Assembly: GCA_016206665.1 (NCBI GenBank)
Contig: JACQRC010000015.1
Span: 118-64,117 of the forward strand
From: Candidatus Omnitrophota bacterium
GTDB taxonomy: Bacteria > Omnitrophota > Gorgyraeia > Aquiviventales > JACQRC01
DNA length: 64,000 bases
Direction of reading: 5' to 3'
Below are positions 1-64,000 of the stretch, one piece after another. Every line of letters begins with the position of its first letter. The stretch's first letter is position 1. The notes below the pieces were generated by a model. The model saw only the letters and a list, made by a program, of their open reading frames with translations, was not told the DNA's origin and searched no databases. The position numbers were made by a program, and so were the translations under genes.

Positions 1-1104
1 TTGGGCCATAACCACCCGGCGGTCCAAGAGGCGATCGGACGGCAACTGCGCGACGGCCTGTCGTTTTCGCTGATGCATCCGCTGGAAGTGGAGGTATCGG
101 AGCGTTTGCTCTCATCGGTGCCATGGGCTGAGATGATCCGGTTTGGCAAATCGGGTTCCGATGTGACCTCCATCGCCGTGCGATTGGCCCGCGCCTCCAC
201 CGGGCGGGAGATGGTCCTGCACTGCGGCTACCACGGCTGGCATGATTGGTACGTGGCCTCGACCAGCCGGCGGCGCGGCATTCCCGAGGCTGTCGCGGCC
301 CTGCAAGCAGCGTTTTCCTACAACGATCTGGAAGCGTTACGACAGTTGTTCAGGACGTTCCGCAACCAGGTGGCGGCGGTCATCATGGAGCCGTACATTG
401 TGACCGAGCCCGCCGCGGGCTTTCTGGAGGGCGTGCGTGAGCTCACCCACGCCAACGGCGCGCTGCTCGTCTTCGATGAGGTGGTCTCCGGCTTCAGGTA
501 TCGGTGGGGCGGTGCGTACGAGTTGTTTGGCGTGACACCGGATCTGATCTGTTTCGGCAAGGCCATAGCCAACGGGTTGCCCCTGTCGGCCATCGCTGGT
601 CCCTCGACGATCATGGAGCTGCTCGAGGATGAGGTGTTTTTCTCCATGACCTTTGGCGGCGAGACGCTGTCGCTCGCCGCCTGCGCCGCGACATTGGGTG
701 AACTGCGCAAGCCCGAGGCCTTCCAGCGCATGTGGCAGGTGGGTCGCCAGCTCCAGGAGGGGCTGCAGGCCCTCGTGGCCAGCTACGGGCTGCAAGCTCA
801 CGTGCAGTGCCTGGGCCGGCCCCCGCGAACGCTGGTGGTCTTCCGCGATCGAGAGGGGAAGGAATCGCTCGCCTTGAAGAGTTTATTCCAGCAGGAAGTC
901 CTCAAACGCGGCATTCTGTTCAACGGTCTCCAGTTGCCGTCGGCGGCCCATACCGAGGCGGACATCGAGCTCACGTTAGGGGCGTTTCAGGAGGCGTTGG
1001 CGATTCTCCGTGAAGCGGTGCAGGACGACAGTGCTGACCGGCGGCTGGAGGGCACGCCCATTCAGCCGGTCTTCCGGCCCTTGCTCCCTGTGGAGCAGCG
1101 GTAG
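1..1104 (+). CDS. Class-III PLP aminotransferase (glutamate-1-semialdehyde aminomutase-like); 5' end cut by window edge
   Basis: The frame is open from nt 1 to TAG 1102-1104, and the TTG at nt 1 is not a real start. Motifs GHNHP, KSGSDV, DEVVSGFR and FGKAIANG (PLP-lysine region) are typical of class-III aminotransferases. Confidence 0.8.
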   Translation: MGHNHPAVQEAIGRQLRDGLSFSLMHPLEVEVSERLLSSVPWAEMIRFGKSGSDVTSIAVRLARASTGREMVLHCGYHGWHDWYVASTSRRRGIPEAVAALQAAFSYNDLEALRQLFRTFRNQVAAVIMEPYIVTEPAAGFLEGVRELTHANGALLVFDEVVSGFRYRWGGAYELFGVTPDLICFGKAIANGLPLSAIAGPSTIMELLEDEVFFSMTFGGETLSLAACAATLGELRKPEAFQRMWQVGRQLQEGLQALVASYGLQAHVQCLGRPPRTLVVFRDREGKESLALKSLFQQEVLKRGILFNGLQLPSAAHTEADIELTLGAFQEALAILREAVQDDSADRRLEGTPIQPVFRPLLPVEQR

Positions 1105-1108
1105 CCTC

Positions 1109-2161
1109 ATGAACCAGCAGCTGACCATTGGCAAGCGTCCGATCGGACCGGGGCAGCCGTGCTTCATCATTGCGGAGGCCGGATCCAATCACAACGGACA
1201 ACTGGACACGGCGTTGGCGCTCATCGATAGCGCGGCGGAGTGCGGCGCGGATGCCGTGAAGTTTCAAACCTTCAACGTCGACCAGCTGGTGGCGCCGACA
1301 CGGCACCCGATCGCCCGTCTCTCGGACCAATTCGGTCAGTTTGGGCAGACCGTCTACGACATGTTCCAGAAGGTGCAGATGCCGCTGGAGTGGCTGCCGC
1401 AACTGTACGAACGCGCCACATCCCGCGGCCTCATCTTTCTGTCAACGCCGTTCGACGAGGCGAGCGTTGATCATCTGGAGCAGTTGGGAGTGCCGGGCTT
1501 CAAGGTCGCCTCCTACGAGATCGTCCATCTGCCCCTGTTGCGATATATCGCCAGCAAGCAGAAGCCCATCCTGCTGTCGACCGGCATGGCGGACTTGGGT
1601 GAGATCGAGGAGGCCCTGAAGGTGATTCATGCCGAAGGGAATGACCAAGTGGCACTCCTGCATTGTGCCATCGGCTATCCTGCCGCTCCCGAGCATGTGC
1701 ATCTGGCGGCGATGGAGACGCTGCGCCAGGCCTTTGGCCTGCCGGTGGGATTTTCCGACCATACGCTGGGCATTGCCGTGCCCCTGGCCGCGGTCGCCCG
1801 CGGGGCCTCGGTGATCGAAAAGCACTTCACGTTGGATGCCCGCGCTCAGGGGCCTGACCACAGCTTCGCGGCCGAGCCAGAGATATTGGCGCAGATGATT
1901 CAAGGTATCCGCGAAGTCGAACGCGCGATCGGTTCTCCTGAGAAACGTTGCCAGCCGAGCGAGGAGCTTCACTATCATCGGGGTCGTCGTGCCATCTTTG
2001 CGGCGGTGGATATCCCTGAAGGGATGCTCATTGCTCCGGAGATGCTGGCCATCCTGCGCCCTGGCGTCGGTCTCAAACCGAAGTTTTTCGACGTGCTGGT
2101 CGGTCGACGAGCCAAGCGAGCCATCCGGGCCTTTGATCCGGTTTCGTGGGATGATGTCTGA
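1109..2161 (+). CDS. NeuB/PseI/LegI-family nonulosonic-acid synthase, copy 1
   Basis: ATG 1109 lies 4 nt after the upstream stop; the track start 1010 is an upstream extension overlapping gene 1. Motifs FIIAEAGSNHNG, AVKFQTF, GFSDHTLG and VIEKHFTLD are present, plus a C-terminal SAF-like segment (IPEGMLIAPEMLAILRPG). Confidence 0.85.
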   Translation: MNQQLTIGKRPIGPGQPCFIIAEAGSNHNGQLDTALALIDSAAECGADAVKFQTFNVDQLVAPTRHPIARLSDQFGQFGQTVYDMFQKVQMPLEWLPQLYERATSRGLIFLSTPFDEASVDHLEQLGVPGFKVASYEIVHLPLLRYIASKQKPILLSTGMADLGEIEEALKVIHAEGNDQVALLHCAIGYPAAPEHVHLAAMETLRQAFGLPVGFSDHTLGIAVPLAAVARGASVIEKHFTLDARAQGPDHSFAAEPEILAQMIQGIREVERAIGSPEKRCQPSEELHYHRGRRAIFAAVDIPEGMLIAPEMLAILRPGVGLKPKFFDVLVGRRAKRAIRAFDPVSWDDV

Positions 2162-3233
2162 GATGGTCTCAAGACGGACAACGCGCAGCGGGGCGAGGGT
2201 CCTGATGAAGGTCGAAGGCGGCGGGCGTTTCGGCTTGGGGCATGTGGTGCGCTCTCTCGAGCTGGCGGCTGTGCTCAGGCGCTCCGGTGTCAGCATCGCG
2301 GGTTTTGCCTGCAATGACGATGCGGCCAGCCGGGCGAGGATTCGCGCCGCGGGCTATCCGTGTGACGTGTTGCCGATATCTCAGCGTGGAAGCTTGGTGC
2401 AGATGGTCGATCGCACCTCGGCGAATGCCATCGTGGTTGATCAACCGACTGACGCGGTGAGGGCATTCCGGGCATTACGGCGGGTACGACCCGGGCTGTT
2501 CTTGGCGGCGCTGGATCCTCCCGTGCCAGATGTGGCGGCCTTCGATGCGGTCATCACGCTGTTCCACCATGGGACGGCGCCACGCCCGGCCCGAACCACA
2601 GGCTATCACGAGGGAGTGGAGTTCGCCGTCCTTGGCTCGCAATTCTCCATGCGCCGCGCTCCACCGAACGGCCTCATAAAGGAGGTCAAAGAGATCTTGG
2701 TGTGCTTTGGCGGCACGGACCCGCAGCGGCTCACCGTGAAGGTCTTGCGTGCGCTGCAAAGAGGATTGCCAGGTACACCAACACTGCACATCGTGTTAGG
2801 GCCGGGATTGACCTTCGGCTCCGTAGTGCGGCAAGCGGCCCGTGACGGCGCCCTGCCGTATGAACTGCACACAGACGTCCATCTGATGTCCCGATTGATG
2901 GCCGGTTGCCAACTCGCCATTTGCAGCGGGGGCGCTACGCTGATGGAGCTCTGTTGCGTGGGATGTCCGGCGCTCGTCATCGCGCAGAATGAGGCCGAAG
3001 CGCGATTCGCCACCTATGTGAGCCGTCGGGGCGCCGCCCGCTACGTGGGGCCCGCGAGACGGGTGACAGAGCGAGAGATCCGCGCCGCGGTGCTGGCGAT
3101 GTGCGCAGCACCAGCCGTCCGACGGCGGCAGGCCGCACACGGCCAGCGACTCATTGATGGGCGCGGCACTCGGCGGACGGCGTCAATCCTGCTGAAGGAG
3201 TTGGAATGGAGTTTGCAAACACACAGTACCTGA
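2151..3233 (+). CDS. PseG/SpsG-like protein (GT-B fold, GT28 C-terminal domain; UDP-sugar hydrolase or transferase), copy 1
   Basis: N-terminal loop GGGRFGLGHVVRSLELA, CFGGTDP, and C-terminal SGGATLMELCCVGCPALVIAQNEAE resemble PseG/SpsG. The start is ambiguous among in-frame ATGs at 2151, 2154 and 2163. Confidence 0.7.
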   Translation: MMSEMVSRRTTRSGARVLMKVEGGGRFGLGHVVRSLELAAVLRRSGVSIAGFACNDDAASRARIRAAGYPCDVLPISQRGSLVQMVDRTSANAIVVDQPTDAVRAFRALRRVRPGLFLAALDPPVPDVAAFDAVITLFHHGTAPRPARTTGYHEGVEFAVLGSQFSMRRAPPNGLIKEVKEILVCFGGTDPQRLTVKVLRALQRGLPGTPTLHIVLGPGLTFGSVVRQAARDGALPYELHTDVHLMSRLMAGCQLAICSGGATLMELCCVGCPALVIAQNEAEARFATYVSRRGAARYVGPARRVTEREIRAAVLAMCAAPAVRRRQAAHGQRLIDGRGTRRTASILLKELEWSLQTHST

Positions 3234-4297
3234 CGCTGAACGGAAAGCGGGCGGTGGCGGACGGCGCTCACCGTGTTCCAAGCTACCAAGAGGCAAAAGG
3301 GCTGCCACCGCTGGTCGTAGACGATCTCTTACGGGTCCACTCGTTTCCCGAGAACCTCGCGCTCCTTGAGCGCTACCGACAGGAGGGCTATCAGCTGGTG
3401 CCGATCCGGCGTCGGCCGGAGCAAGAGCGACCCACCGACTCGCGATTTCCCGGTCGCATCCTGCTCGAGATTACGAGCAAGTGCAACATGAACTGCGTCA
3501 TGTGCCCACGGACGGCCCTGCGGCGGCCTCAACTCCACATGCCGAAGGACGTGGTGCTGCGCTGCATCGATGAGATTCACGCCCACGGTGTTGACGGCCT
3601 CTGGCTGTACAACCTCGGTGAGTCGACGTTGCATCCCCACTTCAAGGAGATCGTTGACTACTGCCATCAGAAGCACCTCGGATCGCTCTGGCTCAGCACC
3701 AACGGCCAGCACATCCCTGAGGAGATCATGGACACTCTCTTCCGCTCCCCGCTGACCTTTTTGAACTACTCGCTCAACGCCATGCGCGCGGAGACGTACC
3801 GTCTCATTTGTCCCACTGGCGACTACGACCGCCTCGTGGCGAATCTCGAACGGCTGTTGGCGAAGAAACGGTCCCAGGGGCGGATGGGCACACCGCCGTG
3901 GATCCGGATCCAGATGATCGAGCAGGCGCAGGTGGCTTCGGAGATTGATTGGTTCCTGACGAACTACGCGACGAAAGGTGAGCTGTTGAGCGTTAACGTG
4001 CTGGAAGCCTTCAACGAGAGTGTCGCCCAAAATGTGGGCTACGCCCAGTGTCGCGAACGGCGGCAGCGGACCCACTGCAATCGCATCGAACGCGGTGACT
4101 GCTTCATCTTTGCGGACGGGGAGGTCTCGTTCTGCGACACGGACTTTAATCACGAGATGTCCATCGGCAACGTCCATGACGCCGCGATCGAAGAAATCTG
4201 GAACGGCGGCCGCCACCGGCACTACACGTCGCTGAACGCGGCGGGCCGGCTGGATGAGGTCCCCATGTGCCGACAGTGCCTGGACTACGACTTGTAA
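3206..4297 (+). CDS. Radical SAM enzyme with C-terminal SPASM/twitch-like Cys cluster, type-1 copy A
   Basis: CxxxCxxC cluster in ITSKCNMNCVMCPR. C-terminal Cys-rich region is CNRIERGDCFIFADGEVSFCDTD...PMCRQCLDY. AAGGAG lies about 7 nt upstream of ATG 3206. It is clearly alignable by eye to the gene at 20447. Confidence 0.8.
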   Translation: MEFANTQYLTLNGKRAVADGAHRVPSYQEAKGLPPLVVDDLLRVHSFPENLALLERYRQEGYQLVPIRRRPEQERPTDSRFPGRILLEITSKCNMNCVMCPRTALRRPQLHMPKDVVLRCIDEIHAHGVDGLWLYNLGESTLHPHFKEIVDYCHQKHLGSLWLSTNGQHIPEEIMDTLFRSPLTFLNYSLNAMRAETYRLICPTGDYDRLVANLERLLAKKRSQGRMGTPPWIRIQMIEQAQVASEIDWFLTNYATKGELLSVNVLEAFNESVAQNVGYAQCRERRQRTHCNRIERGDCFIFADGEVSFCDTDFNHEMSIGNVHDAAIEEIWNGGRHRHYTSLNAAGRLDEVPMCRQCLDYDL

Positions 4298-4311
4298 CGG
4301 GGGAGGAGAGC

Positions 4312-5169
4312 ATGCGCGCGGTTCCTGAGGCAGCTCTACAGCAACATCTCAAGGAGTTGCGCGTCTATGGCTATACCCGCATTGAGCAATTTCTTGACAC
4401 GGCAGAGGTGCAGCGGCTCAAGGCCTTGGTGACCCGGTCTTATGAGGCGACCCGCCAGCTCCAGTATGCCGGCAGGCCCAACCGGGACGCCGCGGATCAG
4501 GTGGTCTATAATTTGCAGAACAAGGACAAGTATTTCATCGACATCCTGGATGACCCATTCATCAGCCGGGTGCTCATGACCATGTTGAACGATCCCTACT
4601 ACCGATTCTTGCCGTCCGATGTCCCCAATTACATCTTGAGCTACTATAATGCGCGGTCCAGCGGCGAGCGGCTCGATCTGCATATTGATTCGGTGATTCC
4701 CGCGCCGGGCGAGCGGACCTGGGCGATGCAAATCGCTTTTGTGCTGGATGACCAGACGCCCGAAAACGGCTGTACCGTCGTGGTGCCTGGTTCCCATCTA
4801 TCGGGCGCCTACACCGACCGAAGCCTGCAGAAGCTCGAGCCCATTCGGGCCCAGGCCGGGGATCTCGTCATGTGGGACAGCCGCCTATGGCATGGGACGA
4901 CGGCCAATGCGTCGGGACGGCCCCGCTGGGCGCTGATTGCCACCTTCGTCATGTGGTGGGTCAAGCAGACCATGCAGATCACCAGATCCCTGCCGGACGC
5001 GATGTACCAAACCCTGACCGACCGCCAAAAAGCCCTGCTGGGTTTTTGCGCCATTCCGCCTGTGGATGAAACGCAGCGCATCAACACCAAGTGCGGTTAC
5101 GACGCACTGTTGCCATCCGTAGAGGATTATCATCGTTGTCAGACGGCCCCATCGGCGGTCGAGGACTGA
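4312..5169 (+). CDS. Phytanoyl-CoA dioxygenase (PhyH)-family Fe(II)/2-oxoglutarate oxygenase
   Basis: ATG 4312 is directly preceded by GGGAGGAGAG. An HxD...H pattern (LDLHIDSVIP ... RLWHGTTAN) and the overall length fit the PhyH family. The track start 4267 is a less likely upstream extension. Confidence 0.75.
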   Translation: MRAVPEAALQQHLKELRVYGYTRIEQFLDTAEVQRLKALVTRSYEATRQLQYAGRPNRDAADQVVYNLQNKDKYFIDILDDPFISRVLMTMLNDPYYRFLPSDVPNYILSYYNARSSGERLDLHIDSVIPAPGERTWAMQIAFVLDDQTPENGCTVVVPGSHLSGAYTDRSLQKLEPIRAQAGDLVMWDSRLWHGTTANASGRPRWALIATFVMWWVKQTMQITRSLPDAMYQTLTDRQKALLGFCAIPPVDETQRINTKCGYDALLPSVEDYHRCQTAPSAVED

Positions 5170-5177: not shown

Positions 5178-6413
5178 ATGCCGCAAACGAAACAGCGTCT
5201 GCTCATCTTGGGAGCCGGCGTCTATCAGATGCCGGCCATCGCCACCGCGAAGGCGCTGGGACTTCAGGTGATTGCGGTAGACGCGAACCCCGTGGCGCCC
5301 GGCTTCACCTTGGCAGATGTCTCCCGCGTCGTTGATGTGCGTGACATCGCCGGATGTCTCAAGGTCGCCAGAGGATTTCAGGTGGATGGGGTCGTATCCA
5401 TTTGCACGGAATCGGCCGTGGCCACGGTGGCGGCACTGGCGGAGGAACTGGGATTGCCCGGCGTCAGCCGCGCGGCCGCGCAAGCCGCCACGGATAAATT
5501 TGTGATGCGCAGCAGATGGGCCGCCACCGGATTGCCGGGGCCGGCCTTCGCTCAGGCAAGCACCCTCGCCGAGGCCGTGCCGGCGGCGCGAGAGATCGGC
5601 TATCCCGTGGTGGTCAAACCCGTTGACAACGCGGGCAGCCGCGGCGTCTCTCGGATCGACGTGGAGAGTGCACTGCCGGCGGCGTTCGACCGGGCGCTGA
5701 GCCAGTCGCTCAGCCGACGAGTGATCCTTGAGGAGTTCATGGATGGCGTCGAGGCAACGGTAGAATCCTTTACCTGGCAGGGGAAGACGCAGGTATTGGC
5801 GATGTCGGAGAAGGTGCGCATCCCGTTTCCCGCCTGCGTCTCAATCAGTCTGAGCTATCCACCGAGCTTTGCTGCCGAAGTCCAGCAGGCCATTCAGCAG
5901 GTGGTATGCCGGGCCATCAAGGCCTTGGGGATTGACCAGGGACCCACCCACACAGAAGTTCTGGTCACGTCTCGCGGGATCAAGCTGGTCGAGCTCGCCG
6001 CGCGCGGCGGCGGATTCGGCATTGTTCATCAGATCGTGCCGATCGTCTCAGGTGTCGATCTAGTTCGGGCCACGATTCAGGTGGCACTGGGATTGCAGCC
6101 GGACATAACACCGCAGTACGCCAGGGCGGCCGTCCTGCGCTTTTTCCAGCCGCAGGCCTTCGGAACCGTGCGCAGGATCCGCGGCGTCGAGGACGCAAAG
6201 CGGATGGAGGGGATCGTCGAGGTCGTGATGGAGGTCAAGCCGGGGCAGTTGCTGGGGCCCATTACGCGCGACGGCGAACGGCCGGGCTACTTGATCGCCT
6301 CGGCGCCGACGCGCGAGCTGGCCTTGCAGTATGCGGATGCCGCGGAACGTGCGGTTCGTTTCGAGGTCGTCGCCGCCGAACAGGCGACGGCCGGCGCGGC
6401 GGGCCGGCCATGA
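5178..6413 (+). CDS. ATP-grasp family ligase
   Basis: ATG 5178 comes after an 8-nt spacer. There is an N-terminal Rossmann-like RLLILGAGVYQ, then GYPVVVKPVDNAGSRGV, LEEFMDG and VELAARGGG, which are typical ATP-grasp elements. Confidence 0.8.
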   Translation: MPQTKQRLLILGAGVYQMPAIATAKALGLQVIAVDANPVAPGFTLADVSRVVDVRDIAGCLKVARGFQVDGVVSICTESAVATVAALAEELGLPGVSRAAAQAATDKFVMRSRWAATGLPGPAFAQASTLAEAVPAAREIGYPVVVKPVDNAGSRGVSRIDVESALPAAFDRALSQSLSRRVILEEFMDGVEATVESFTWQGKTQVLAMSEKVRIPFPACVSISLSYPPSFAAEVQQAIQQVVCRAIKALGIDQGPTHTEVLVTSRGIKLVELAARGGGFGIVHQIVPIVSGVDLVRATIQVALGLQPDITPQYARAAVLRFFQPQAFGTVRRIRGVEDAKRMEGIVEVVMEVKPGQLLGPITRDGERPGYLIASAPTRELALQYADAAERAVRFEVVAAEQATAGAAGRP

Positions 6414-7195
6414 TCATTGACGGCCACACGCATATTCATCCGCACGCGGACGGCTGGGGGGGCCGGTATGACGCGTCGCTGGCGACGCTGGTCGAAGCTT
6501 TGACCCAAGGGCCTGTCCAGCGGGCGGTGGTGTTGCCGATCGCGCCGAAGGTGTCGAACGATTTCATCGCCGAAAGCTGTCGCCGTTATCCAGACCAGCT
6601 GATCGGTTTCGCGTCGGTGGATCCCATGGCAGCGACGGCGGGGATCGAGGAACTGGAGCGGGCCGTGGGCCAGCTGAAGCTGAAGGGGTTGAAGCTGCAT
6701 CCCCGTCTCCAGGGCTTCGGACGCAACGAATATACGCAGCTGGTGCCGCTGATTCAGCGGGCGGCTCGCCTCAACGTGCCGGTGCTCATTGACGCCTTTC
6801 CCTACGGCAAAGAGCTCTTCGAGACGCGGGCGGTGGAGCTCATCAATGCGCTGGCGGAGGCGGTGCCCGATGCCAACCTGATCATGGCGCACGCCGGCGG
6901 CTACCAGCTGTTTGAGGCTTTCCTGGTGGCCAAGGCGCACCGCAACGTCTTTCTGGACATCTCCTATACGCTGCCCTATTTTCGCGGCAGCTCGATCGAG
7001 ACCGATCTGGGATTCGTCATCCGGAAGATGCATGCGCAGCGCATCATCTACGGTTCAGATCATCCAGAACAGCCCTTGGCCGCGGCCTTCACGGAGACGC
7101 GGGTGGTACTTGAGCGGTACGGTCTGACACCGAAGCAGATGGATGCCGTCCTCGGAGAGAACCTCGCCCCGCTGGTGAATGGGGTCAGTCTATGA
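6410..7195 (+). CDS. Amidohydrolase_2-type metal-dependent TIM-barrel hydrolase/decarboxylase
   Basis: ATGA overlap with the upstream stop. The N-terminal metal site is MIIDGHTHIHPH, with later LKLHP, MAHAGG and YGSDHP. Confidence 0.7.
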   Translation: MIIDGHTHIHPHADGWGGRYDASLATLVEALTQGPVQRAVVLPIAPKVSNDFIAESCRRYPDQLIGFASVDPMAATAGIEELERAVGQLKLKGLKLHPRLQGFGRNEYTQLVPLIQRAARLNVPVLIDAFPYGKELFETRAVELINALAEAVPDANLIMAHAGGYQLFEAFLVAKAHRNVFLDISYTLPYFRGSSIETDLGFVIRKMHAQRIIYGSDHPEQPLAAAFTETRVVLERYGLTPKQMDAVLGENLAPLVNGVSL

Positions 7196-16514: not shown

Positions 16515-16531
16515 TACTTCGCGAGGGCAGG

Positions 16532-37866: not shown

Positions 37867-37882
37867 GGTGGAGGCTTCGGTC

Positions 37883-43716: not shown

Positions 43717-43740
43717 CGCCATCAGAGAGGGTGACGACGC

Positions 43741-57006: not shown

Positions 57007-58010
57007 TGGATGCGCCGCCACAGGCGCTGGATCCCCGCGCCGTTGTGTGGATTCGTCTCGACCGATTCGGGGAGGTGTTGTTGAACCTGCCGGCGGTCGG
57101 GGTCCTGCGCCGCGCCTATCCCGCCGCCCGCATCACCCTGCTCGTCCAGCCGTATCTCAGCGAATTAGTGGCCGGCTCTCCGGACGTGAACGAGGTCCTC
57201 AGCTACGCGCCGTCATCCGGTGATGCCTGGTGGCGTGAAGCGTGGCGTGTCGCGCGGTTGCTGCGACCGCACCGGTTCGATGTGGCGGTCGTGGCGCATC
57301 CCAAGAAATCGCTGCACCTCGCCGCCGCGTTGGCCGGGATTCCGCGGCGGCTGGGCTATGATCGGAAGTGGGGCTGGCTCCTGACGCATCGTCTTGCGGA
57401 TGACAAGGTGGCACGGCGCCGGCATGAGGTGGATGCCAACGTCCATCTGCTGGAACGGCTGGGGATTGTCGCTGAACCGGTCCCGCTGTCGCTCCCGGTC
57501 GCTGCGAAGACGGCCATCCGCGTCGCCGCCCTGCTCAGACAGGAGGGAATCCACGATGGCGATTGCATAGTGGGCCTGCACCCGTGGACGTCCCATCCGC
57601 GCAAGCAGTGGCCGGTCGAGCGCTTCAGGCAATGTCTCGAACGGCTCGCCACGACCACGCCGGCGGTGCCGGTTATCCTCGGCGGCGTCGAGGAGGCCGA
57701 AGCCGCCCGACGGCTCTGCGCAGGGCTCGGCTCGCGGCCGGTGTCGCTGGCCGGCCGCGTGAATCTTCTGGAACTGGCGGCGCTATTGCAGCGGTGCCGG
57801 GTGTTGCTCACCAATGACAGCGGCCCCATGCATCTGGCTGCCGCGGTGGGCACACCGGTCGTCGCGCTCTTCGGCGGCAGCGACCCTGCCGCCTCGCCGG
57901 AGCGGTGGGCTCCGCGGGGTGACGGCCATACCGTGTTGCGCGCCGAGGAGCTCTCCGCGATTTCGGTGGAGCAGGTCGTGCAGGCCGTCCAGCGTTACCT
58001 GGCGTCATGA
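57006..58010 (+). CDS. GT9 family glycosyltransferase (heptosyltransferase-like), copy 1
   Basis: TGATG junction. Motifs are IRLDRFGEVLLNLPAVGVLRRAYP and the GT9 signature LLTNDSGPMHLAAAVGTPVVALFG. Confidence 0.8.
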   Translation: MDAPPQALDPRAVVWIRLDRFGEVLLNLPAVGVLRRAYPAARITLLVQPYLSELVAGSPDVNEVLSYAPSSGDAWWREAWRVARLLRPHRFDVAVVAHPKKSLHLAAALAGIPRRLGYDRKWGWLLTHRLADDKVARRRHEVDANVHLLERLGIVAEPVPLSLPVAAKTAIRVAALLRQEGIHDGDCIVGLHPWTSHPRKQWPVERFRQCLERLATTTPAVPVILGGVEEAEAARRLCAGLGSRPVSLAGRVNLLELAALLQRCRVLLTNDSGPMHLAAAVGTPVVALFGGSDPAASPERWAPRGDGHTVLRAEELSAISVEQVVQAVQRYLAS

Positions 58011-58101
58011 CCCCACCACCTGCCGCATGGCCCGTAGGGCCGGGCCCGCCGATGGCGGGCCGCCCGCCGTTCCGGCGGGGCGCGTCAGGTGGTGGGGTGA
58101 C
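58007..58101 (-). repeat. 95-bp palindromic intergenic repeat, copy 2 (inverted relative to copy 1)
   Basis: ATGAC (58007-58011) and GTGAC (58097-58101) flank the TIR ACCCCACCACCTG (58010-58022) / CAGGTGGTGGGGT (58086-58098). The reverse complement aligns by hand to copy 1 at both ends (about 27/29 and 31/35 identities). The central part is divergent but still self-complementary. Confidence 0.85.
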
Positions 58102-59176
58102 CCCCCAGCGCGTGCTGATCGTGAACCCCTTTGGCATCGGAGATGTCCTCTTCACGACACCGGTGATTCGCGCGCTGCGGCAGGCCTGGCCGCAGGCCTA
58201 TCTAGCCTTTCTCGGCAACCGCCGCACCGAACCGCTGCTACGGCACAATCCGCACGTCAACGAGGTCGTGGTGTTTGAGAAGGACGAGTTTCGCCAATGT
58301 TGGCGTCACGAGTCGCCGTGGGCGTGCCTGCGTCGGCTCTGGGCATGGGTGCGCGAGTTGCGGGCCAAGCGGTTTGAGCTGGCGCTGGATTTCTCCTTCA
58401 ACAGCCGCGTCGGCTTTCTGCTGTGGCTGATGGGCATTCCCCGGCGCGTGGGCTTCGATTACCGTCGGCGCGGGCTGTTCCTCACGGAGCGTGTCCCCTT
58501 GGCCGGTTTCGACGACAAGCCCGTGGTGGATTACTACTTTGACTTGCTCGCCGAATTGGGCATTACGGCCGCTGACCGTCACCTGGAGGTGGTCGTGCCA
58601 CCAGAACTCCAGCGGTGGGCGCAAAAGCGCCTGCGAGAGATGGGCATCCGTGCTGGGGAGGCCTTGGTCGGGCTCATCCCCGGTGGTGGGGCGAGCTGGG
58701 GTACCTCCGCTTCGCTTCGTCGTTGGCATGCGGAGGGTTTCGCGGCCGTGGCACAGCGGCTCAAGCGCCGGCCTGGCATGCAGCTCCTCCTCTTTGGCGA
58801 TCACGCGGACCGTGAGTTGTGCCCACCCATCGTGAGCCTCGTTCCCGACATCCATGATCTATGCGACCAGCTCAGTTTAATGGAGTTTGTGGCCTTGTTG
58901 GCTCAGTGCCGGGTCGTAGTGTGCAACGACGGTGGTCCCTTACACTTGGCGGTAGCGGTCGGCACCCGCACGGTGTCCGTCTTTGGACCGGTGAGCGAGC
59001 AGGTCTACGGTCCGTACGCGCCCGACGGCGCTCATCGGGTCATCAGCTACGACCCGGGCTGCCGCCCTTGCTACCAACGATTCCATCTGCCGCCGTGCCC
59101 CATCGACCGCGAGTGCCTGCGGCGGATCACGGCCGACGACGTGGCCCGGGCCGCGGAGGAGCTACTCGCGGCATGA
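58097..59176 (+). CDS. GT9 family glycosyltransferase (heptosyltransferase-like), copy 2
   Basis: Motifs are RVLIVNPFGIGDVLFTTPVIRAL and VVCNDGGPLHLAVAVGTRTVSVFGP. The start is probably GTG 58097 at the right end of the repeat. ATG 58007 is in frame and would add 30 repeat-encoded codons. Confidence 0.8.
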   Translation: MTPQRVLIVNPFGIGDVLFTTPVIRALRQAWPQAYLAFLGNRRTEPLLRHNPHVNEVVVFEKDEFRQCWRHESPWACLRRLWAWVRELRAKRFELALDFSFNSRVGFLLWLMGIPRRVGFDYRRRGLFLTERVPLAGFDDKPVVDYYFDLLAELGITAADRHLEVVVPPELQRWAQKRLREMGIRAGEALVGLIPGGGASWGTSASLRRWHAEGFAAVAQRLKRRPGMQLLLFGDHADRELCPPIVSLVPDIHDLCDQLSLMEFVALLAQCRVVVCNDGGPLHLAVAVGTRTVSVFGPVSEQVYGPYAPDGAHRVISYDPGCRPCYQRFHLPPCPIDRECLRRITADDVARAAEELLAA

Positions 59177-60066
59177 GGGTGGCGCTCATCTTCAACTGGG
59201 ACCGGGCCGACACGGTGGGGCTGTATTTCCAGCGGGCCCTCGCCGGCACCGGCCACACGGTCGATCACTACTGGACCAAGGCGGCCGCGGCGATCCCGCG
59301 GACCTACGACCTCTACCTGCGGGTCGATCACGGTGACTACACAGACGATCTGCCCGCCGATCTGCAACCTTGCGTCTTTGTGGTGGTGGACACCCATCTG
59401 CCCAAGCCCTACAAGAAGATCCGGCGGCAGGTGACGCATTATGATCTGGTCTGCTGCGCCCAGCAGGAGGGAGCGCTCCGGCTCCAGCGCGACACGGGGA
59501 CGCCCTGTTGCTGGCTGCCGCTCGGCTGCGATCCGGAGATTCATCGGAGGCTGGAGGTTCCCAAACAGTACGACATCGGCTTTGTCGGAACGGATGGCAA
59601 GAAGAGCCTGCGCAAGCAACTGCTCGCCCAGCTGACGCAGCGGTATCCCCGCAGCCGGATCGGGACCGCGCCCCACACCGAGATGGCGTCGATCTACAGC
59701 GCCGCACGAATTGCCTTTAATTATTCGCTGCGGAATGATATTAATATGCGGATGTTCGAAGTCCTCAGTTGCGGGGCCCTCCTGGTCACGAACGCCATCC
59801 ACGACAACGGCTTCGGGCAGCTGTTTCGCGACCGGGAACACCTGGTGAGCTACCAATCGCCGGACGAGTTGTGGCGGCTCATCGACTATTACCTCGCCCA
59901 TGAAGCGGAGCGTGAGGCGATCGCCGCGCGCGGGCGCCATCTGGCGACGGCTGCGCACACCTATCGCCACCGCGTGGGCGTCCTGCTCGAGCTGGTGGGT
60001 CGCCTGCTGGGCGGCCGCTATCCATCGCTCGCCATGTTGAAGGAGTCGACATGCGCATCCTCGTAA
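59173..60066 (+). CDS. CgeB-like glycosyltransferase (DUF3880 / Glyco_trans_1_2-type)
   Basis: ATGA overlap. YDIGFVGTDGKKSLRKQLL..., NMRMFEVLSCGALLVTN and ...YYLAHEAEREAIAARG resemble CgeB/YkvP-type proteins. Confidence 0.6.
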   Translation: MRVALIFNWDRADTVGLYFQRALAGTGHTVDHYWTKAAAAIPRTYDLYLRVDHGDYTDDLPADLQPCVFVVVDTHLPKPYKKIRRQVTHYDLVCCAQQEGALRLQRDTGTPCCWLPLGCDPEIHRRLEVPKQYDIGFVGTDGKKSLRKQLLAQLTQRYPRSRIGTAPHTEMASIYSAARIAFNYSLRNDINMRMFEVLSCGALLVTNAIHDNGFGQLFRDREHLVSYQSPDELWRLIDYYLAHEAEREAIAARGRHLATAAHTYRHRVGVLLELVGRLLGGRYPSLAMLKESTCASS

Positions 60067-61163
60067 CAGGCGGGGCCGGGTTCATCGCCTCGCATCTGGT
60101 CGATGGTCTGGTGGCCGCCGGTCACCGGGTGACGGTGCTGGACAATTTTGATCCGCAGGTCCATCAGCGCAGCCGTCCGGCCTACCTGAATCCCCGGGCC
60201 GAGTACGTCACGGGCGAGGTGCAGGACCGATCTGCGCTTGAGCGGTTGATCCCGCAGGCGGAGGTGCTCTATCACCAGGCGGCCGCGGTCGGCGTCGGCC
60301 AGTCGATGTACCAGATCGCTCATTACATGCAGGCCAACACCCAGGCCACCGCGGTGCTGTTGGATGTGCTGGTCAACACGAAGGCGAAACTGCGCAAACT
60401 GATCGTCGCCAGCTCCATGAGCATCTATGGGGAGGGCCTGTACCGGTGCGTATCCTGCGGGCCGGTCGCCCCGCAGCTGCGCCAGCCAGAGCAACTGGCG
60501 CGGCATGAATGGGAAGCGCGCTGTCCGCGGTGCGGCCGGCCCGCCACGCCGATCCCCACGACGGAAGACAAACCACGCCATCCCACCTCCATCTACGCGT
60601 TGTCCAAGCAGGACCAGGAAGCGATGTGCCTGCTGATCGGCACCGCCTACAAGATTCCGACGGTGGCCCTGCGGTACTTCAACGTCTACGGACCGCGGCA
60701 GTCGCTCTCCAATCCCTACACCGGGGTGTGCGCCATCTTCTCCTCGCGGATCAAGAACGGGCATGCGCCCCTCATTTATGAGGACGGGTTGCAGTCGCGC
60801 GACTTCATCCATGTCGCCGATATCGTCCAGGCGAATCTGCTGGCGCTTGAGCGTCCGGAGGCGGACGGCCAGGTCTTCAACGTCGGCACCGGAACGCCCA
60901 CCACCATTCTGGATATCGCGCGGGTCCTGGCCAAACTGTACGGCTCATCGGTCGCCCCGCAGATCGTCGGCAAGTACCGCACCGGCGATATCCGCCACTG
61001 CATCGCGGATGTCTCCCGGTTGCAGGCGCTGGGTTTCCAGCCCGCGCACACGCTGGAGACCGGTTTGCGCGATCTGGTGGCCTGGGGCAAGGCCACGGAG
61101 GCGGTCGACCGGGTCGACGAGGCCGCGCAAGAGCTGGAGGCGCGGGGGCTGTGTCAGGGGTAG
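60051..61163 (+). CDS. NAD-dependent sugar epimerase/dehydratase (extended SDR) with an internal CxxC...CxxC zinc-ribbon insertion
   Basis: Motifs are MRILVTGGAGFIASHL, SSMSIYG and YALSK. The insertion CVSCGPVAPQLRQPEQLARHEWEARCPRCG lies between the Ser and Tyr-Lys catalytic motifs. Confidence 0.85.
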   Translation: MRILVTGGAGFIASHLVDGLVAAGHRVTVLDNFDPQVHQRSRPAYLNPRAEYVTGEVQDRSALERLIPQAEVLYHQAAAVGVGQSMYQIAHYMQANTQATAVLLDVLVNTKAKLRKLIVASSMSIYGEGLYRCVSCGPVAPQLRQPEQLARHEWEARCPRCGRPATPIPTTEDKPRHPTSIYALSKQDQEAMCLLIGTAYKIPTVALRYFNVYGPRQSLSNPYTGVCAIFSSRIKNGHAPLIYEDGLQSRDFIHVADIVQANLLALERPEADGQVFNVGTGTPTTILDIARVLAKLYGSSVAPQIVGKYRTGDIRHCIADVSRLQALGFQPAHTLETGLRDLVAWGKATEAVDRVDEAAQELEARGLCQG

Positions 61164-62293
61164 ACGCAGGAGGAACCATCCGCTGCGATCTGGTCCTGCT
61201 GACGTGGGACCATCTCGAAGAAACGCGGCCATGCCTGGAGTCGCTCTTCGCGCACACGCGGGTGCGGTGCCGGCTGTTCATCGTCGATAACGGCAGCGTC
61301 TCGCCCGCGAAGGAGTATCTCGACAAGGTCCGCGGAAACGACTGGATCGAGGTCCAGCTACTGCGCAACGCGACCAACGAAGGCTTCCCGTGCGGGATGA
61401 ACCGCGGCCTGCGCGCCTCCACCGCGCCGTGCGTCTGTCTGCTCAATAACGATCTGCTGTTTACGCCAGGGTGGCTGGAGCGCTTGCTGGAAGTGGCGGA
61501 CGCCCATCCCGAGCTGGGCGTGCTCAATCCGGCCAGCAACAACTTCAGCGAACTCCCGCCGCGGGGGATGTCGTTGGCGGCCTATGCCGGCGAGCTCGAA
61601 GCGCAACGCGGGCAGTACCGCGAGATCGGGACCTGCGTCGGTTTCTGCATGCTCATCACGCGGCCGGTCATCGAGCGGATCGGCCTCTTGGATGAGACGG
61701 TGAACCAGATCTTCTTTGAGGACACCGACTATTGCCGCCGCGCCGTCGCGGCCGGCTTTCGGTGCGCTCTCGTGCCGTCGTCCTATGTCTGGCATCATGA
61801 GCATCGGACCGTCCGGAAGATGGCGCAGCGGGAGGAGATCTTTCAGGAGAACCGACGGCGGTTCGAGCAGCGCTGGGGCCGGCCGCTGCGCATCCTGTAT
61901 GCCCGGCGGCGCCCGCTGGTCCCCGGGGACCCTGCCACGCGGCAGGAGCTGGCGCGCAGCGTGGACTGGGCCCGGCGGGGGGCCTTCATCCAGCTCTACC
62001 ATCCGCAGGCTAACGGCGGCGCGGACCGGGCGAAGCTCTTCCGCGCCGCCGGGCTGGCGGAGCACGCGGACGTGACGGTCACCCCGGTGACGGTGGGCGG
62101 GTGGCGCTGGGTGGTCCTGGCGCGGCTGCTGGCGCGCCGCAAGAAGCCCTTCGATTTGTTGGTGACGGACGACGCGCAGCTGCTGCGATGGGCGAGACGG
62201 CTGCGCGCGTGCCACCACGCCCTCGCCGTCGACGCCGAGGATGAGACAGGATTCCAGCAGGCATGGCAACAACAGTCCCACTCTCCGTCGTAA
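61151..62293 (+). CDS. GT2 family glycosyltransferase with about 130-aa C-terminal extension
   Basis: GTG 61151 has a 13-nt overlap. Motifs are DLVLLTWDHLEETRPCLESL, FIVDNGS, NEGFPCGMNRG, LLNNDLLF and FFEDTDYC. Confidence 0.75.
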   Translation: MSGVDAGGTIRCDLVLLTWDHLEETRPCLESLFAHTRVRCRLFIVDNGSVSPAKEYLDKVRGNDWIEVQLLRNATNEGFPCGMNRGLRASTAPCVCLLNNDLLFTPGWLERLLEVADAHPELGVLNPASNNFSELPPRGMSLAAYAGELEAQRGQYREIGTCVGFCMLITRPVIERIGLLDETVNQIFFEDTDYCRRAVAAGFRCALVPSSYVWHHEHRTVRKMAQREEIFQENRRRFEQRWGRPLRILYARRRPLVPGDPATRQELARSVDWARRGAFIQLYHPQANGGADRAKLFRAAGLAEHADVTVTPVTVGGWRWVVLARLLARRKKPFDLLVTDDAQLLRWARRLRACHHALAVDAEDETGFQQAWQQQSHSPS

Positions 62294-63036
62294 TCATCAC
62301 GAAGAACGAAGCCGCGCGCCTGCCGGCGTGCCTGAAGAGCGCGGCTTGGGCGGCCGAGCGGCTGGTCGTCGACGATGAATCGACCGACGGCACGGTCGCC
62401 GTGGCCGAAGGTCTGGGCGCGCGGGTGCTACGCCGGAAGATGGATATCGAAGGCCGCCACCGCAACTGGGCATATGCCCAGGCGACCCAGCCCTGGATCT
62501 TTTCGCTCGATGCGGACGAGCAGTTCACCCCGGAACTGCAGCAGGAGATCACCGCGCTCCTGGCGGGAGCGCCGGCCGTCAATGTGTATGCCGTGCCCCG
62601 GCGCAACTACATCGGCTCGACGTGGATCCGCCACGGCGGCTGGTATCCCAGCGAGCAGGTGAAGCTGTTCAAGCAGGGCACCTTTCAGTGGGAGGAGGCC
62701 GAGGTCCATCCGCGGGCCCTCACCGAGGGGCCGTGGGGCACACTCAAGAGCGACCTGCTCCACTATTCGTACCGTGACTTCAATGACTTTCTCGAGAAGT
62801 TGAACGGCCAGACCCGGCGAGAGGCAGTCAAGTGGCATCGCACCGGCCGCCGGGTGAGCCTGGGCAAATGCCTGTGGCGGGCGACCGACCGGTTCTGGCG
62901 GAGCTGGCTGCTGAAGGCCGGCTACCGCGACGGCTTCGTGGGATTCATGGTGGCCTGCTTTGCCGGGTGGTATCAATTGATGAGCTACGCCCACTACTGG
63001 GAGCTGACGCACGGGACCACCTCCAATGCCGCGTGA
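62263..63036 (+). CDS. GT2 family glycosyltransferase (WaaE/KdtX-like LPS-core type), paralogue 1
   Basis: Motifs are LSVVIITKNEAARL, VVDDESTDGT and SLDADE. Confidence 0.8.
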   Translation: MATTVPLSVVIITKNEAARLPACLKSAAWAAERLVVDDESTDGTVAVAEGLGARVLRRKMDIEGRHRNWAYAQATQPWIFSLDADEQFTPELQQEITALLAGAPAVNVYAVPRRNYIGSTWIRHGGWYPSEQVKLFKQGTFQWEEAEVHPRALTEGPWGTLKSDLLHYSYRDFNDFLEKLNGQTRREAVKWHRTGRRVSLGKCLWRATDRFWRSWLLKAGYRDGFVGFMVACFAGWYQLMSYAHYWELTHGTTSNAA

Positions 63037-63829
63037 ACGTTTATCGGCCGTCATCCTGACGAAGAACGAGGAGCATCAGATCGTCCGGTGCCTCGAGAGC
63101 GTGCGCTGGGCCGATGAGATCATCGTGGTTGACGGGATGAGCACCGACCGCACCGTGGAGATCTGCCGGCGTTACGGGGCGCAGGTCATCGCGCGGCCCT
63201 TTTCAGGCAGTTTCGGCGAGGAGCGCAACGCGGGCGCCGAGGCCGCGTCGGGAGAGTGGATCATCCAGCTCGACGGCGACGACGAAGTCAGTGCGGAGCT
63301 GCGTCAGGCCATCGGCCAGGTGCTGACCGGCGGCACGACGCACGCGGCCTTTCAGATTCGGCGCAAAAATAATTTCCTGGGCCACTGGATGACGCATGGC
63401 GGCTGGTACCATTACTATCCGCACTTCTACCATCGGGCGTCGTGCCGGTACGAGGGGCGGGTGCATCATCTGCTGAAGACCAGCGGCACCATCGGCAAGC
63501 TGGAAGCGGCGGTGCTCCACTATCCATTCACCAGTCTCGAGCAGTTCGTGGTTCGCCAGAACCGCTACACCTCGCTCGAGGCGCAGGAGATGCTCGACAC
63601 GCAAGGCGTCCTGCCGCAGCGGCTGGTGCGGTACAACCTGACCTGGCGGCCGGTCAAACTGTTCTGGAAGAGCTATGTAAAAAAGCAGGGCCGCCGCGAG
63701 GGATGGCACGGCCTCGTCTTCGCCATCCTCTATGCGTGGGTCCATTTCTTGAAGTGGGCGAAATATTGGGAGCTGATCCGCGACCGCCAACGACAGGAGA
63801 TTGCATGCGCGTCCTCATCACAGGGATAA
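63026..63829 (+). CDS. GT2 family glycosyltransferase (WaaE/KdtX-like LPS-core type), paralogue 2
   Basis: Motifs are LSAVILTKNEEHQI, VVDGMSTDRT and QLDGDDE. It has the same length and layout as the preceding gene. Confidence 0.8.
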   Translation: MPRERLSAVILTKNEEHQIVRCLESVRWADEIIVVDGMSTDRTVEICRRYGAQVIARPFSGSFGEERNAGAEAASGEWIIQLDGDDEVSAELRQAIGQVLTGGTTHAAFQIRRKNNFLGHWMTHGGWYHYYPHFYHRASCRYEGRVHHLLKTSGTIGKLEAAVLHYPFTSLEQFVVRQNRYTSLEAQEMLDTQGVLPQRLVRYNLTWRPVKLFWKSYVKKQGRREGWHGLVFAILYAWVHFLKWAKYWELIRDRQRQEIACASSSQG

Positions 63830-64000
63830 CCGGGTTCGTCGGCAGTCATCTGACGGAATGGCTGCTCACCCAGCGCGGAATCGAGGTCTTCGGCATCGAG
63901 CGCTGGCGCAGCAAGACCGACAACATCGACCACTTGAAGGACCGCATCACGATGTTCAACTGCGACATGCGCGACGCCTCCTCCGTGCACCGGGCGCTGG
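63805..64000 (+). CDS. NAD-dependent epimerase/dehydratase (GDP-mannose 4,6-dehydratase/reductase-like); 3' end cut by window edge
   Basis: This ORF is not in the track because no stop falls inside the window. ATG 63805 comes after GGAGA. My translation is MRVLITGITGFVGSHLTEWLLTQRGIEVFGIERWRSKTDNIDHLKDRITMFNCDMRDASSVHRAL, which has the GxxGxxG Rossmann start. Confidence 0.75.
   Translation, partial: MRVLITGITGFVGSHLTEWLLTQRGIEVFGIERWRSKTDNIDHLKDRITMFNCDMRDASSVHRAL

Follow-up and report, generated by a model that had tools for sequence, protein, structure and literature searches.

A co-directional array of 59 glycan genes in an Omnitrophota contig, with palindromic elements in two stop/start overlaps

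How does a bacterium assemble and export a surface glycan from an array of genes that runs in one direction for at least 64 kb and includes no recognisable exporter? The question is raised by a 64,000-nt stretch of DNA (hereafter, the window) from contig JACQRC010000015.1 of a Candidatus Omnitrophota bacterium (assembly GCA_016206665.1), in which we distinguish three blocks of glycan genes (1-25.6 kb, 25.6-44.8 kb and 44.8-64 kb) and two 87-nt palindromic elements, each lodged in a stop/start overlap. The Omnitrophota are uncultured, ultra-small and possibly predatory or host-dependent bacteria. The array belongs to a known class, the surface-glycan biosynthetic super-loci, here in a poorly known phylum; with a probability of roughly 0.68, we take it to be a fragment, at least 64 kb long, of a cell-envelope glycan super-locus typical of Omnitrophota, comprising three blocks and served by an exporter encoded off the contig. 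On this reading, surface sugars take up more than 64 kb in one Omnitrophota lineage, with three nonulosonic-acid synthases and many methylated sugars.

Layout of the array and of its relatives

Tiling of stop-to-stop open reading frames (ORFs), supported by the GC content of third codon positions (GC3) and with starts chosen relative to the preceding stop, places 59 genes in the window, all on the plus strand, with both window edges cutting genes; this independent tiling confirms the original prediction, which had been made from the sequence alone. The probability of 59 co-directional genes is 3e-18 with equal use of the strands and 6e-8 with a 75% strand bias. The coding share of the window is 99.77%, with 147 non-coding bases, and in 58 of the 59 genes GC3 (mean 0.82) exceeds the GC content of first positions (GC1), which in turn exceeds that of second positions (GC2). 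The long minus-strand ORFs show GC1 of about 0.5, GC2 of about 0.7 and GC3 of about 0.85, the composition of antisense shadows. Nineteen of the 20 proteins tested match, end to end, the calls of the NCBI Prokaryotic Genome Annotation Pipeline (PGAP) for the source contig, and the PGAP accessions (MBI4355000-5041) and locus tags (HY597_00955-01135) run in step with genes 10 to 51, so that PGAP has no additional gene on either strand in that stretch; real minus-strand genes, which the original prediction had named as the finding that would speak against it, are not placed there.

The window spans 64,000 of the 64,137 bases of the contig, which ends inside the array; because only 137 bases extend past the window, the flanking genes are absent from the assembly. 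Chimeric assembly is unlikely given a GC content of 62-69% throughout and the agreement with independent Logan contigs (SRR12113385) over 6.4 kb of the right end and over 5.9 kb close to the left one. Recent duplication is ruled out as the origin of the array by the identity of just 26-42% between paralogues.

Overlaps are found at 42 of the 58 junctions, namely, 25 of 4 nt (ATGA in 18 cases and GTGA in seven), three of 1 nt and 14 longer ones of 8-31 nt. The other 16 junctions are spacers of 0-26 nt, the widest of which (26 nt before 18618 and before 20447, and 24 nt before 43741) contain only a Shine-Dalgarno-like motif. The overlap-rich layout and the 26 nt of the largest ordinary spacer agree with the original prediction; its counts of 21 4-nt and four 1-nt overlaps change to 25 and three with a different choice of start codons. 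At 49161 and 58007, however, the true spacers are probably 86 nt long and made up entirely of palindromic element:

49165..49251, unstranded: palindromic element copy 1, 87 nt, between TGA direct repeats at 49162-49164 and 49252-49254 (repeat search)
58011..58097, unstranded: palindromic element copy 2, 87 nt, interior inverted relative to copy 1, between TGA repeats at 58008-58010 and 58098-58100

Among eight related loci, 163 of the 164 called genes lie on one strand, so that a co-directional layout with few gaps characterises the lineage as a whole and is not special to this contig; with 99.8% of the window coding, such arrays are a natural test case for very long operons. The loci around five homologues of gene 26 are likewise dense one-strand glycan arrays. 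In three close relatives (L140-L142; contigs of 136-192 kb from metagenome-assembled genomes, GC 60-64%), the order and direction of the genes for an epimerase, a WecA-type fusion protein, a Wzy_C protein, two enzymes of glycosyltransferase family 9 (GT9), a Glyco_trans_1_2 protein and family 2 (GT2) enzymes are the same as in block 3, and two of the three also have the equivalent of the epimerase gene 55. This conserved initiator/ligase/GT9 block could serve as a phylum-wide marker of envelope glycans. After the second GT9 gene and ahead of the Glyco_trans_1_2 gene, all three relatives contain a small conserved ORF of 115-147 aa with the motif SLVERGW (L140 15397-15840, L141 15141-15488, L142 15408-15836), which tblastn did not find in the window.

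Apart from the two 86-nt junctions filled by the elements, the array is co-directional throughout, without promoter-sized gaps and without intergenic terminators, which upholds an earlier claim to this effect by scans of spacers and sites. Sigma-70-like sites occur at chance level across the window (the promoter motifs of Omnitrophota may differ). Terminator-like sites are absent between genes and at chance level outside 40-60 kb; within that interval, 17 are observed against 8.6 +/- 3.0 expected, the excess (region 54254-57072) being entirely intragenic, with about half of it in the T-rich membrane genes at 54018 and 55801, and probably a side effect of T-rich hydrophobic codons. The window contains no detectable tRNA genes and no match to an Rfam family, and the RfaH ops/JUMPStart motif is found in it at chance level only. 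The array would be read one way, into a single very long transcript or a small number of them, and translation would cross the stop/start overlaps, where coupling is suggested by the geometry of the junctions.

Alternatively, the array might consist of several tightly packed operons, with promoters in the 3' ends of upstream genes and with the elements acting as partial terminators or processing sites. We regard this as a serious contender, albeit with the odds against it. Genes 49-58 are conserved whereas the upstream genes vary among the relatives, pointing to separate histories of the blocks, and a promoter-sized gap precedes the block-opening epimerase in two of the three relatives (349 nt in L140 and 258 nt in L142). 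The first 12 kb have 62-64% GC and most of the remainder has 65-68%, which hints at a separate origin of the leftmost nonulosonic-acid module, and the elements fold very stably, at about -80 kcal/mol (z = -5.0 for copy 1 and -3.7 for copy 2). However, with the two elements set aside, no gap in the window exceeds 26 nt and 42 of 58 junctions overlap, promoter-like sites stay at chance level, no terminator-like site is intergenic, and the elements have no T-tract after the stem.

The gaps in the relatives measure 163-349 nt and lie at the start of the conserved block or within it (L140 8671-9021; L142 8702-8961 and 11770-11934). The same junctions are 4-nt and 8-nt overlaps in the window, whose array is therefore more tightly fused than those of the relatives.

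Gene content of the three blocks

All 59 proteins were searched against Pfam and NCBIfam, the unknown and membrane proteins down to E <= 10; assignments below come from these profile searches unless another basis is given. Block 1 comprises genes 1 to 23:

1..1104, +: gene 1, class-III aminotransferase, 5' end cut (Pfam Aminotran_3 145.6 bits, profile positions 41-343)
1109..2161, +: gene 2, NeuB-family nonulosonic acid synthase with SAF domain (Pfam NeuB 306.9 bits)
2163..3233, +: gene 3, PseG-like/GT28 C-terminal domain protein (TIGR03590 106 bits, below cut-off)
3206..4297, +: gene 4, radical S-adenosylmethionine (SAM)/SPASM enzyme
4312..5169, +: gene 5, PhyH-type 2-oxoglutarate-Fe(II) oxygenase
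5178..6413, +: gene 6, ATP-grasp, L-amino-acid-ligase-like (Pfam LAL_C2, ATP-grasp_4)
6410..7195, +: gene 7, Amidohydro_2 family
7192..7815, +: gene 8, SAM methyltransferase
7812..8570, +: gene 9, RraA-like aldolase
8567..10534, +: gene 10, PFTS-motif polysaccharide biosynthesis protein, soluble (TIGR04417 145 bits, cut-off 100)
10531..11628, +: gene 11, FemAB/GNAT-type acyltransferase
11606..12646, +: gene 12, weakly DegT/LegC-aminotransferase-like (E of about 1e-3 only)
12636..13709, +: gene 13, GNAT N-acetyltransferase
13710..14642, +: gene 14, one N-terminal hydrophobic segment, no Pfam/NCBIfam match (hydrophobicity scan)
14645..15520, +: gene 15, soluble, no Pfam/NCBIfam match (hydrophobicity scan)
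15525..16514, +: gene 16, GDSL-like hydrolase, below threshold (49%-identical homologue in metagenome locus L077)
16511..17608, +: gene 17, sugar-1-phosphate nucleotidyltransferase with CBS domains
17605..18591, +: gene 18, LegB-like NAD-dependent 4,6-dehydratase (TIGR04180 427 bits, cut-off 475)
18618..20420, +: gene 19, fusion of NeuB synthase (155 bits) and CMP-sugar cytidylyltransferase (CTP_transf_3 79.6 bits, C-terminal half)
20447..21544, +: gene 20, radical SAM/SPASM enzyme
21559..22653, +: gene 21, NeuB-family synthase (Pfam NeuB 267.7 bits; NCBIfam NeuB 335 bits)
22655..23764, +: gene 22, PseG-like protein (TIGR03590 99 bits, below cut-off)
23761..25578, +: gene 23, LIC13510/DUF6716-type surface-carbohydrate protein, soluble (TIGR04326 57 bits, below cut-off; DUF6716 weak)

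The three NeuB paralogues (genes 2, 19 and 21; 31-42% identical pairwise) exceed the Pfam NeuB cut-off of 22.1 bits and fall under the NCBIfam equivalog cut-offs, in the case of gene 2 only slightly (NeuB 373.7 and PseI 335.6 bits). The synthase and, in gene 19, the CMP-sugar synthetase are accordingly present; for the other steps of nonulosonic-acid synthesis, the LegB match of gene 18 is below its cut-off, the aminotransferase match of gene 12 is weak, and GNAT acetyltransferases are available. Block 1 would yield tailored, CMP-activated nonulosonic acids akin to legionaminic and pseudaminic acid, which the products of genes 10 and 23 (8567 and 23761) probably attach. Gene 10 (NCBI protein MBI4355000.1) encodes a protein with no real membrane span by hydrophobicity scan, and its homologue in another metagenome (46% identity) also lies downstream of a NeuB gene. 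It is probably a GT-B-like transferase, but this is tentative: its structure model is poor (predicted local distance difference test score, pLDDT, 60) and the GT-B-like matches are weak (TM-scores 0.2-0.37). At the sequence level, searches of the PDB gave no meaningful match to genes 10, 23 or 26.

Block 1 resembles the legionaminic/pseudaminic clusters of the Campylobacter type in its complement of NeuB synthase, CMP-transferase, LegB-like dehydratase, CBS-domain nucleotidyltransferase, PseG-like protein and acyltransferases. It differs from them in the three synthase paralogues, one fused to the CMP-transferase, in the weakly recognisable aminotransferase, in the additional radical SAM/SPASM, ATP-grasp, PhyH and amidohydrolase enzymes, and in that most of the scores are below equivalog cut-offs.

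Block 2 extends from gene 24 to gene 41:

25578..26570, +: gene 24, GT2 with two C-terminal membrane helices, polyprenyl-phosphate sugar synthase type (PgfS 265.6, ArnC 153 bits)
26573..27451, +: gene 25, SAM methyltransferase
27448..29274, +: gene 26, predicted membrane glycosyltransferase of GT-C fold (ten hydrophobic segments; fold match)
29271..30191, +: gene 27, SAM methyltransferase
30181..31320, +: gene 28, radical SAM enzyme
31313..32212, +: gene 29, GT2
32209..32841, +: gene 30, SAM methyltransferase
32851..34827, +: gene 31, AsnB-type glutamine amidotransferase
34824..35846, +: gene 32, ArnC-like GT2 with two C-terminal membrane helices (PRK10714 208 bits, below cut-off; hydrophobicity scan)
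35843..37135, +: gene 33, GT-C, PMT_2/STT3-like (PMT_2 36.7 bits, cut-off 26.1)
37126..37866, +: gene 34, SAM methyltransferase (start as in PGAP)
37868..39232, +: gene 35, GT-C, PMT_2/GT87, start codon uncertain (PMT_2 53.6 bits; PGAP start differs)
39229..40014, +: gene 36, GT2
40011..40862, +: gene 37, GT2
40859..41848, +: gene 38, SAM methyltransferase
41845..43716, +: gene 39, fusion of GT1 (TuaH-like) and DUF218/ElyC (47% identical to its homologue in L145)
43741..44337, +: gene 40, single-pass protein, DUF4330-like N-terminus (in L145, a DUF4330 gene comes next after the homologue of gene 39)
44334..44783, +: gene 41, small protein with one hydrophobic segment (positional equivalent of a 136-aa gene in L145)

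Genes 24 and 32, in which the two C-terminal helices were located by hydrophobicity scan, have PgfS and ArnC as their best matches (for gene 24, both scores are below the equivalog cut-offs), and this combination assigns them to the type that loads sugars onto polyprenyl phosphate. The GT-C partners of such synthases are genes 33 and 35, by their PMT_2 matches, and gene 26, by its fold. Gene 26 encodes the only multi-pass protein of the window without a firm family by profile; its 22 homologues carry PMT_2 or bear the name GT39. An AlphaFold model built from these homologues (pLDDT 84; predicted template modelling score, pTM, 0.84) was compared with PDB folds, and each of the top 23 matches is a GT-C enzyme (lowest E 2.5e-6), among them STT3, DPY19, ALG9, AglB, PglB, ArnT, Emb and Pmt; transporters appear with negligible probability only. 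The model thus identifies gene 26 as a GT-C membrane glycosyltransferase, and a flippase function is ruled out by top fold matches that are GT-C only.

In block 2, the two-helix GT2 enzymes would load sugars onto polyprenyl phosphate, and the GT-C enzymes at 27448, 35843 and 37868 would transfer these sugars at the outer face of the inner membrane; the block would also contribute many methyltransferases. As in the ArnC/ArnT, GtrB/GtrII and PgfS/PgfM pairs, a two-helix GT2 gene lies one or two genes upstream of a GT-C gene (24 and 26; 32 and 33, with 35 nearby); unlike these systems, the window has no ArnE/F or GtrA partner and combines three GT-C paralogues in one array. The trio of genes 39-41 (41845-44783) occurs in the same order in L145 (13954-16740), with the partners of genes 40 and 41 being too divergent for tblastn.

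Block 3 contains genes 42 to 59:

44780..45766, +: gene 42, SAM methyltransferase
45763..46959, +: gene 43, GT4
46956..48107, +: gene 44, GT4
48100..49164, +: gene 45, GFO/IDH/MocA oxidoreductase, UDP-GlcNAc 3-dehydrogenase-like
49161..49931, +: gene 46, hexapeptide N-acetyltransferase (second possible start at 49251, directly behind the element)
49942..51846, +: gene 47, AsnB-type amidotransferase
51839..53041, +: gene 48, GT4
53038..54018, +: gene 49, NAD-dependent sugar epimerase/dehydratase, opening the Omnitrophota-conserved block (order kept in L140-L142)
54018..55808, +: gene 50, WecA/MraY-type initiating phosphotransferase fused to a WbaP-N-terminal/CoA_binding_3 region (Glycos_transf_4 110.6 bits)
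55801..57006, +: gene 51, Wzy_C family protein (Wzy_C 77.9 bits; PGAP 'O-antigen ligase family protein')
57006..58010, +: gene 52, GT9, heptosyltransferase-like (Glyco_transf_9 111.6 bits, cut-off 22)
58007..59176, +: gene 53, GT9, alternative GTG 58097 (Glyco_transf_9 108.3 bits, cut-off 22)
59173..60066, +: gene 54, Glyco_trans_1_2 protein (same position in relatives)
60051..61163, +: gene 55, NAD-dependent epimerase/dehydratase
61151..62293, +: gene 56, GT2
62263..63036, +: gene 57, GT2
63026..63829, +: gene 58, GT2
63805..64000, +: gene 59, GDP-mannose-4,6-dehydratase-like, 3' end cut (extends to at least 229 aa in Logan contig L001)

Gene 50 supplies the initiating polyprenyl-phosphate sugar-phosphate transferase, with 97.9 bits against the WecA model, below its cut-off. 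The fusion joins the transferase to a WbaP/WcaJ-type N-terminal membrane/CoA_binding_3 region without the WbaP/WcaJ catalytic domain. Of the 3,898 homologues with E <= 1e-20, the 120 best share this two-domain architecture in 119 cases (the exception is one cut-off protein), and every named one among these 120 comes from Omnitrophica/Omnitrophota; the nearest relative in GTDB representative genomes is 29% identical. Gene 51 scores only 23 bits against the RfaL model. Its position beside the two GT9 genes, conserved in L140-L142, suggests a ligase rather than a Wzy polymerase, so that it is probably a WaaL-type enzyme. The GT9 enzymes expected in a lipopolysaccharide (LPS) core region are recognised at the Pfam level, genes 52 and 53 being below the equivalog cut-offs. 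In block 3, an oligosaccharide linked to undecaprenyl diphosphate would be begun by the WecA-like protein at 54018, extended by GT4 and GT2 enzymes and ligated by the Wzy_C protein at 55801 to a core built by the two GT9 enzymes; the product, LPS-like or lipooligosaccharide-like, would be exported through the general LPS transport (Lpt) pathway.

The two GT9 genes beside a Wzy_C gene, along with further glycosyltransferases, are reminiscent of LPS core (waa) regions with WaaL. Unlike those regions, the window lacks WaaA and the ADP-heptose pathway, all the scores are below equivalog cut-offs, and a WecA-type initiator with a fused WbaP-N-terminal-like domain stands at the head of the block.

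Among described systems, the nearest analogue is the Leptospira rfb locus, which is almost entirely co-directional and includes NeuB-type genes. It is, moreover, very large and variable, with an abundance of sugar-modifying enzymes, methyltransferases and glycosyltransferases and with a conserved 3' assembly part (PMC10958091). The array in the window is likewise large, rich in the same enzyme classes and equipped with a conserved assembly end, and TIGR04326 ('O_ant_LIC13510'), the family weakly matched by gene 23, is named for a Leptospira gene. In contrast, the wzx and wzy orthologues, the ABC-transporter membrane region and the opening MarR regulator of the rfb locus (PMC9736851, PMC10958091) are all missing in the window, which comes from a different phylum.

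A different account of the same enzymes is that the array serves mainly general protein glycosylation, with S-layers, pili, flagella or giant surface proteins as targets, a Wzy_C protein that works as an O-oligosaccharyltransferase of the PglL type, and GT-C enzymes that O-glycosylate proteins with sugars supplied by PgfS-like synthases. As the main function, we find this improbable. It draws on the best match of gene 24, the Streptococcus protein-glycosylation enzyme PgfS (265.6 bits), and on gene 26, with homologues named GT39 and fold matches to STT3, PglB and Pmt. Nonulosonic acids typically decorate flagellins, pilins and S-layers, which also counts for protein glycosylation, as do the many very long secreted proteins reported in Omnitrophota (preprint 10.64898/2026.06.07.730766). 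Conversely, the pair of GT9 genes beside Wzy_C across the phylum points to an LPS core, and the window contains no gene for a target protein, flagellin or pilin. The two accounts, protein glycosylation and an LPS-like product, are mutually compatible.

The missing exporter

None of the 59 proteins matches a flippase of the multidrug/oligosaccharidyl-lipid/polysaccharide (MOP) superfamily (Polysacc_synt, MurJ-type), the ATP-binding cassette (ABC) families ABC_tran, ABC2_membrane or ABC_membrane (Wzm/Wzt or a fused exporter), Wzz, GNVR or Poly_export (Wza and other outer-membrane polysaccharide export, OPX, proteins), or GtrA or ArnE/F, and no unassigned small multi-pass protein is left in the window. 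By hydrophobicity scan, the only multi-pass proteins are the GT-C enzymes, the initiator and the Wzy_C protein, and tblastn of the ABC exporter of a relative against all frames of the window yielded nothing. Of the parts of a Wzx/Wzy-dependent cluster, the window has the initiator, whereas Wzx, Wzz or another polysaccharide co-polymerase (PCP), and Wza/OPX are not found in it; its one Wzy_C protein may be a ligase rather than the polymerase.

These profile searches bear out what the original prediction had recognised, that is, an initiating transferase at 54018, a Wzy_C/WaaL-like protein at 55801 and no MOP flippase, Wzm/Wzt, Wzz or Wza. Of the two explanations it had offered, participation in export of the proteins at 8567, 23761, 13710, 14645, 43741 and 44334 gains no support, these being soluble or single-pass and implausible as transporters. 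The other explanation, an exporter outside the window, is favoured by homologous arrays that include an ABC exporter, although the flanks that could prove it are not in the assembly.

A fused exporter of about 600 aa (ABC_membrane plus ABC_tran) is encoded in two of the five arrays linked to gene-26 homologues (L144 2967-4772 and L145 1-1616), 7-10 kb upstream of the homologue, with HepA (466 bits), MsbA (372 bits) and PglK (219 bits) as the best family matches. We infer that the lineage probably uses an MsbA/PglK-type exporter, located in this genome beyond the contig ends or elsewhere; flipping of the lipid-linked oligosaccharide would then be the task of an off-contig protein, most probably an ABC exporter of the MsbA/HepA/PglK type as in the gene-26 arrays of the relatives. 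Neither Wzz nor Wza would be expected if a WaaL-type enzyme joins the product to the lipid A core and Lpt exports it. With WaaL-type ligation to the core, the flippase alone would be truly missing; its absence holds for the window, but with an array cut off by the contig end and a plausible exporter in relatives it does not amount to a discovery. In L144 and L145, the exporter gene is followed by a radical SAM/SPASM gene and then by a gene for a soluble protein of 496-539 aa. Directly upstream of the corresponding radical SAM/SPASM gene (20), the window has the NeuB/CMP-transferase fusion (19) and not an exporter.

Several points weigh against an envelope-glycan super-locus with an off-contig exporter. 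No exporter is found within 10 kb of the conserved block in the three close relatives, and L144 and L145, which do encode one, are more distant, with GC content of about 50% and gene-26 homologues only 36-39% identical. The window contains no Kdo transferase (WaaA) or lipid A gene, and gene 51 could be a polymerase or a protein O-oligosaccharyltransferase instead of a ligase. Internal promoters may lie inside coding sequence, and most of the enzyme matches are below curated equivalog cut-offs, so that the sugar identities are approximate.

It is also conceivable, if very improbable, that an exporter is truly absent from the genome and that the GT-C enzymes assemble the glycan largely outside the membrane from single sugars on polyprenyl phosphate, for which a lipid-sugar flippase of small size or unconventional kind would suffice. 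Three GT-C enzymes and at least two GT2 enzymes of the polyprenyl-phosphate sugar synthase type in a window free of MOP and ABC genes are compatible with such a route, and so is a SemiSWEET/PQ-loop gene in the relative L147, two genes past the gene-26 homologue. Yet the window is equally free of small membrane proteins of the GtrA, ArnE/F or SemiSWEET type, the relatives do have an ABC exporter, and a WecA-like initiator with cytoplasmic GT4 and GT2 enzymes implies a lipid-linked oligosaccharide that has to be flipped. The SemiSWEET/PQ-loop protein of L147 (101 aa; 12544-12849), encoded within a glycan array near the closest substantial homologue of gene 26 (47% identity), is by sequence a possible small transporter of sugars or lipid-sugars.

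Two bolder readings, which do not exclude each other, appear improbable to us, namely, a single transcription unit of at least 59 genes and 64 kb that is translationally coupled throughout, and the lack of a conventional oligosaccharide flippase, with GT-C assembly largely outside the membrane. If true, the single unit would be among the largest operons by gene count, with the palindromic elements as its only punctuation.

Palindromic elements in two stop/start overlaps

Each element begins and ends with terminal inverted repeats, CCCCACCACCTG and CAGGTGGTGGGG, and the window copies contain three interior hairpins. Both copies sit exactly in a stop/start overlap, such that the upstream gene terminates at the left TGA, whereas the last G of the element together with the right TGA forms GTGA, providing a start codon for the downstream gene. 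The shift introduced by an element is exactly 90 nt and contains no in-frame stop, which explains why PGAP starts genes 46 and 53 at the left, adding 30 element-encoded residues. For gene 53, the conserved N-terminus of the second GT9 enzyme starts right after GTG 58097, and the family profile begins at residue 35. In L140-L142, the corresponding GT9/GT9 junction (genes 52/53) is a plain, empty ATGA overlap, which allows a comparison of the empty site with the filled one.

A scan of metagenomes with both ends of the element identified 96 loci (L044-L139); the distinct instances number 89, and the GC content of the host DNA ranges from 47-71%. The left junction is ATGA in 46 instances, GTGA in 26, TTGA in seven and CTGA in five; the right junction is GTGA in 76 of the 89. 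In 56% of the cases, the left TGA closes an ORF that is 80 codons long or longer; taken over every TGA triplet of these loci, the figure is 11% (p = 4e-23). With terminal inverted repeats, a 3-bp TGA duplication, an empty site in relatives and many dispersed copies, the element shows the features of a miniature inverted-repeat transposable element (MITE). No partner transposase is encoded among the window genes, and no search for one was made; Rfam contains no family that matches the element, and the literature searched held nothing relevant on its end sequence or on palindromic elements that overlap gene junctions.

The elements are short, multicopy sequences with terminal inverted repeats and a 3-bp direct repeat, and in these respects resemble MITEs, repetitive extragenic palindromic (REP) elements and mycobacterial interspersed repetitive units (MIRUs). 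The MIRUs reportedly lie between operon genes and keep the stop and start codons overlapping (Supply et al. 1997). The window elements are similarly located between genes of the array, with the stop/start overlap retained. They differ from all three kinds of repeats in being strongly palindromic, with a 13-bp closing stem, usually two or three internal hairpins and an interior in either orientation, and in that the flanking TGA together with the terminal G of the element recreates the GTGA overlap. The element is thus an example of mobile DNA whose ends restore both the stop and the start codon that it interrupts. Having no T-tract after the stem, the elements do not qualify as classical intrinsic terminators, and their possible effects on the long transcript include stabilisation and segmentation.

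The two possible starts of gene 46 are reflected in the existing gene calls: PGAP uses the left one, for a protein of 256 aa, and the Logan caller uses the right one, for 226 aa. Three of the 96 element loci are homologous Omnitrophota glycan loci, in which the element occupies other junctions.

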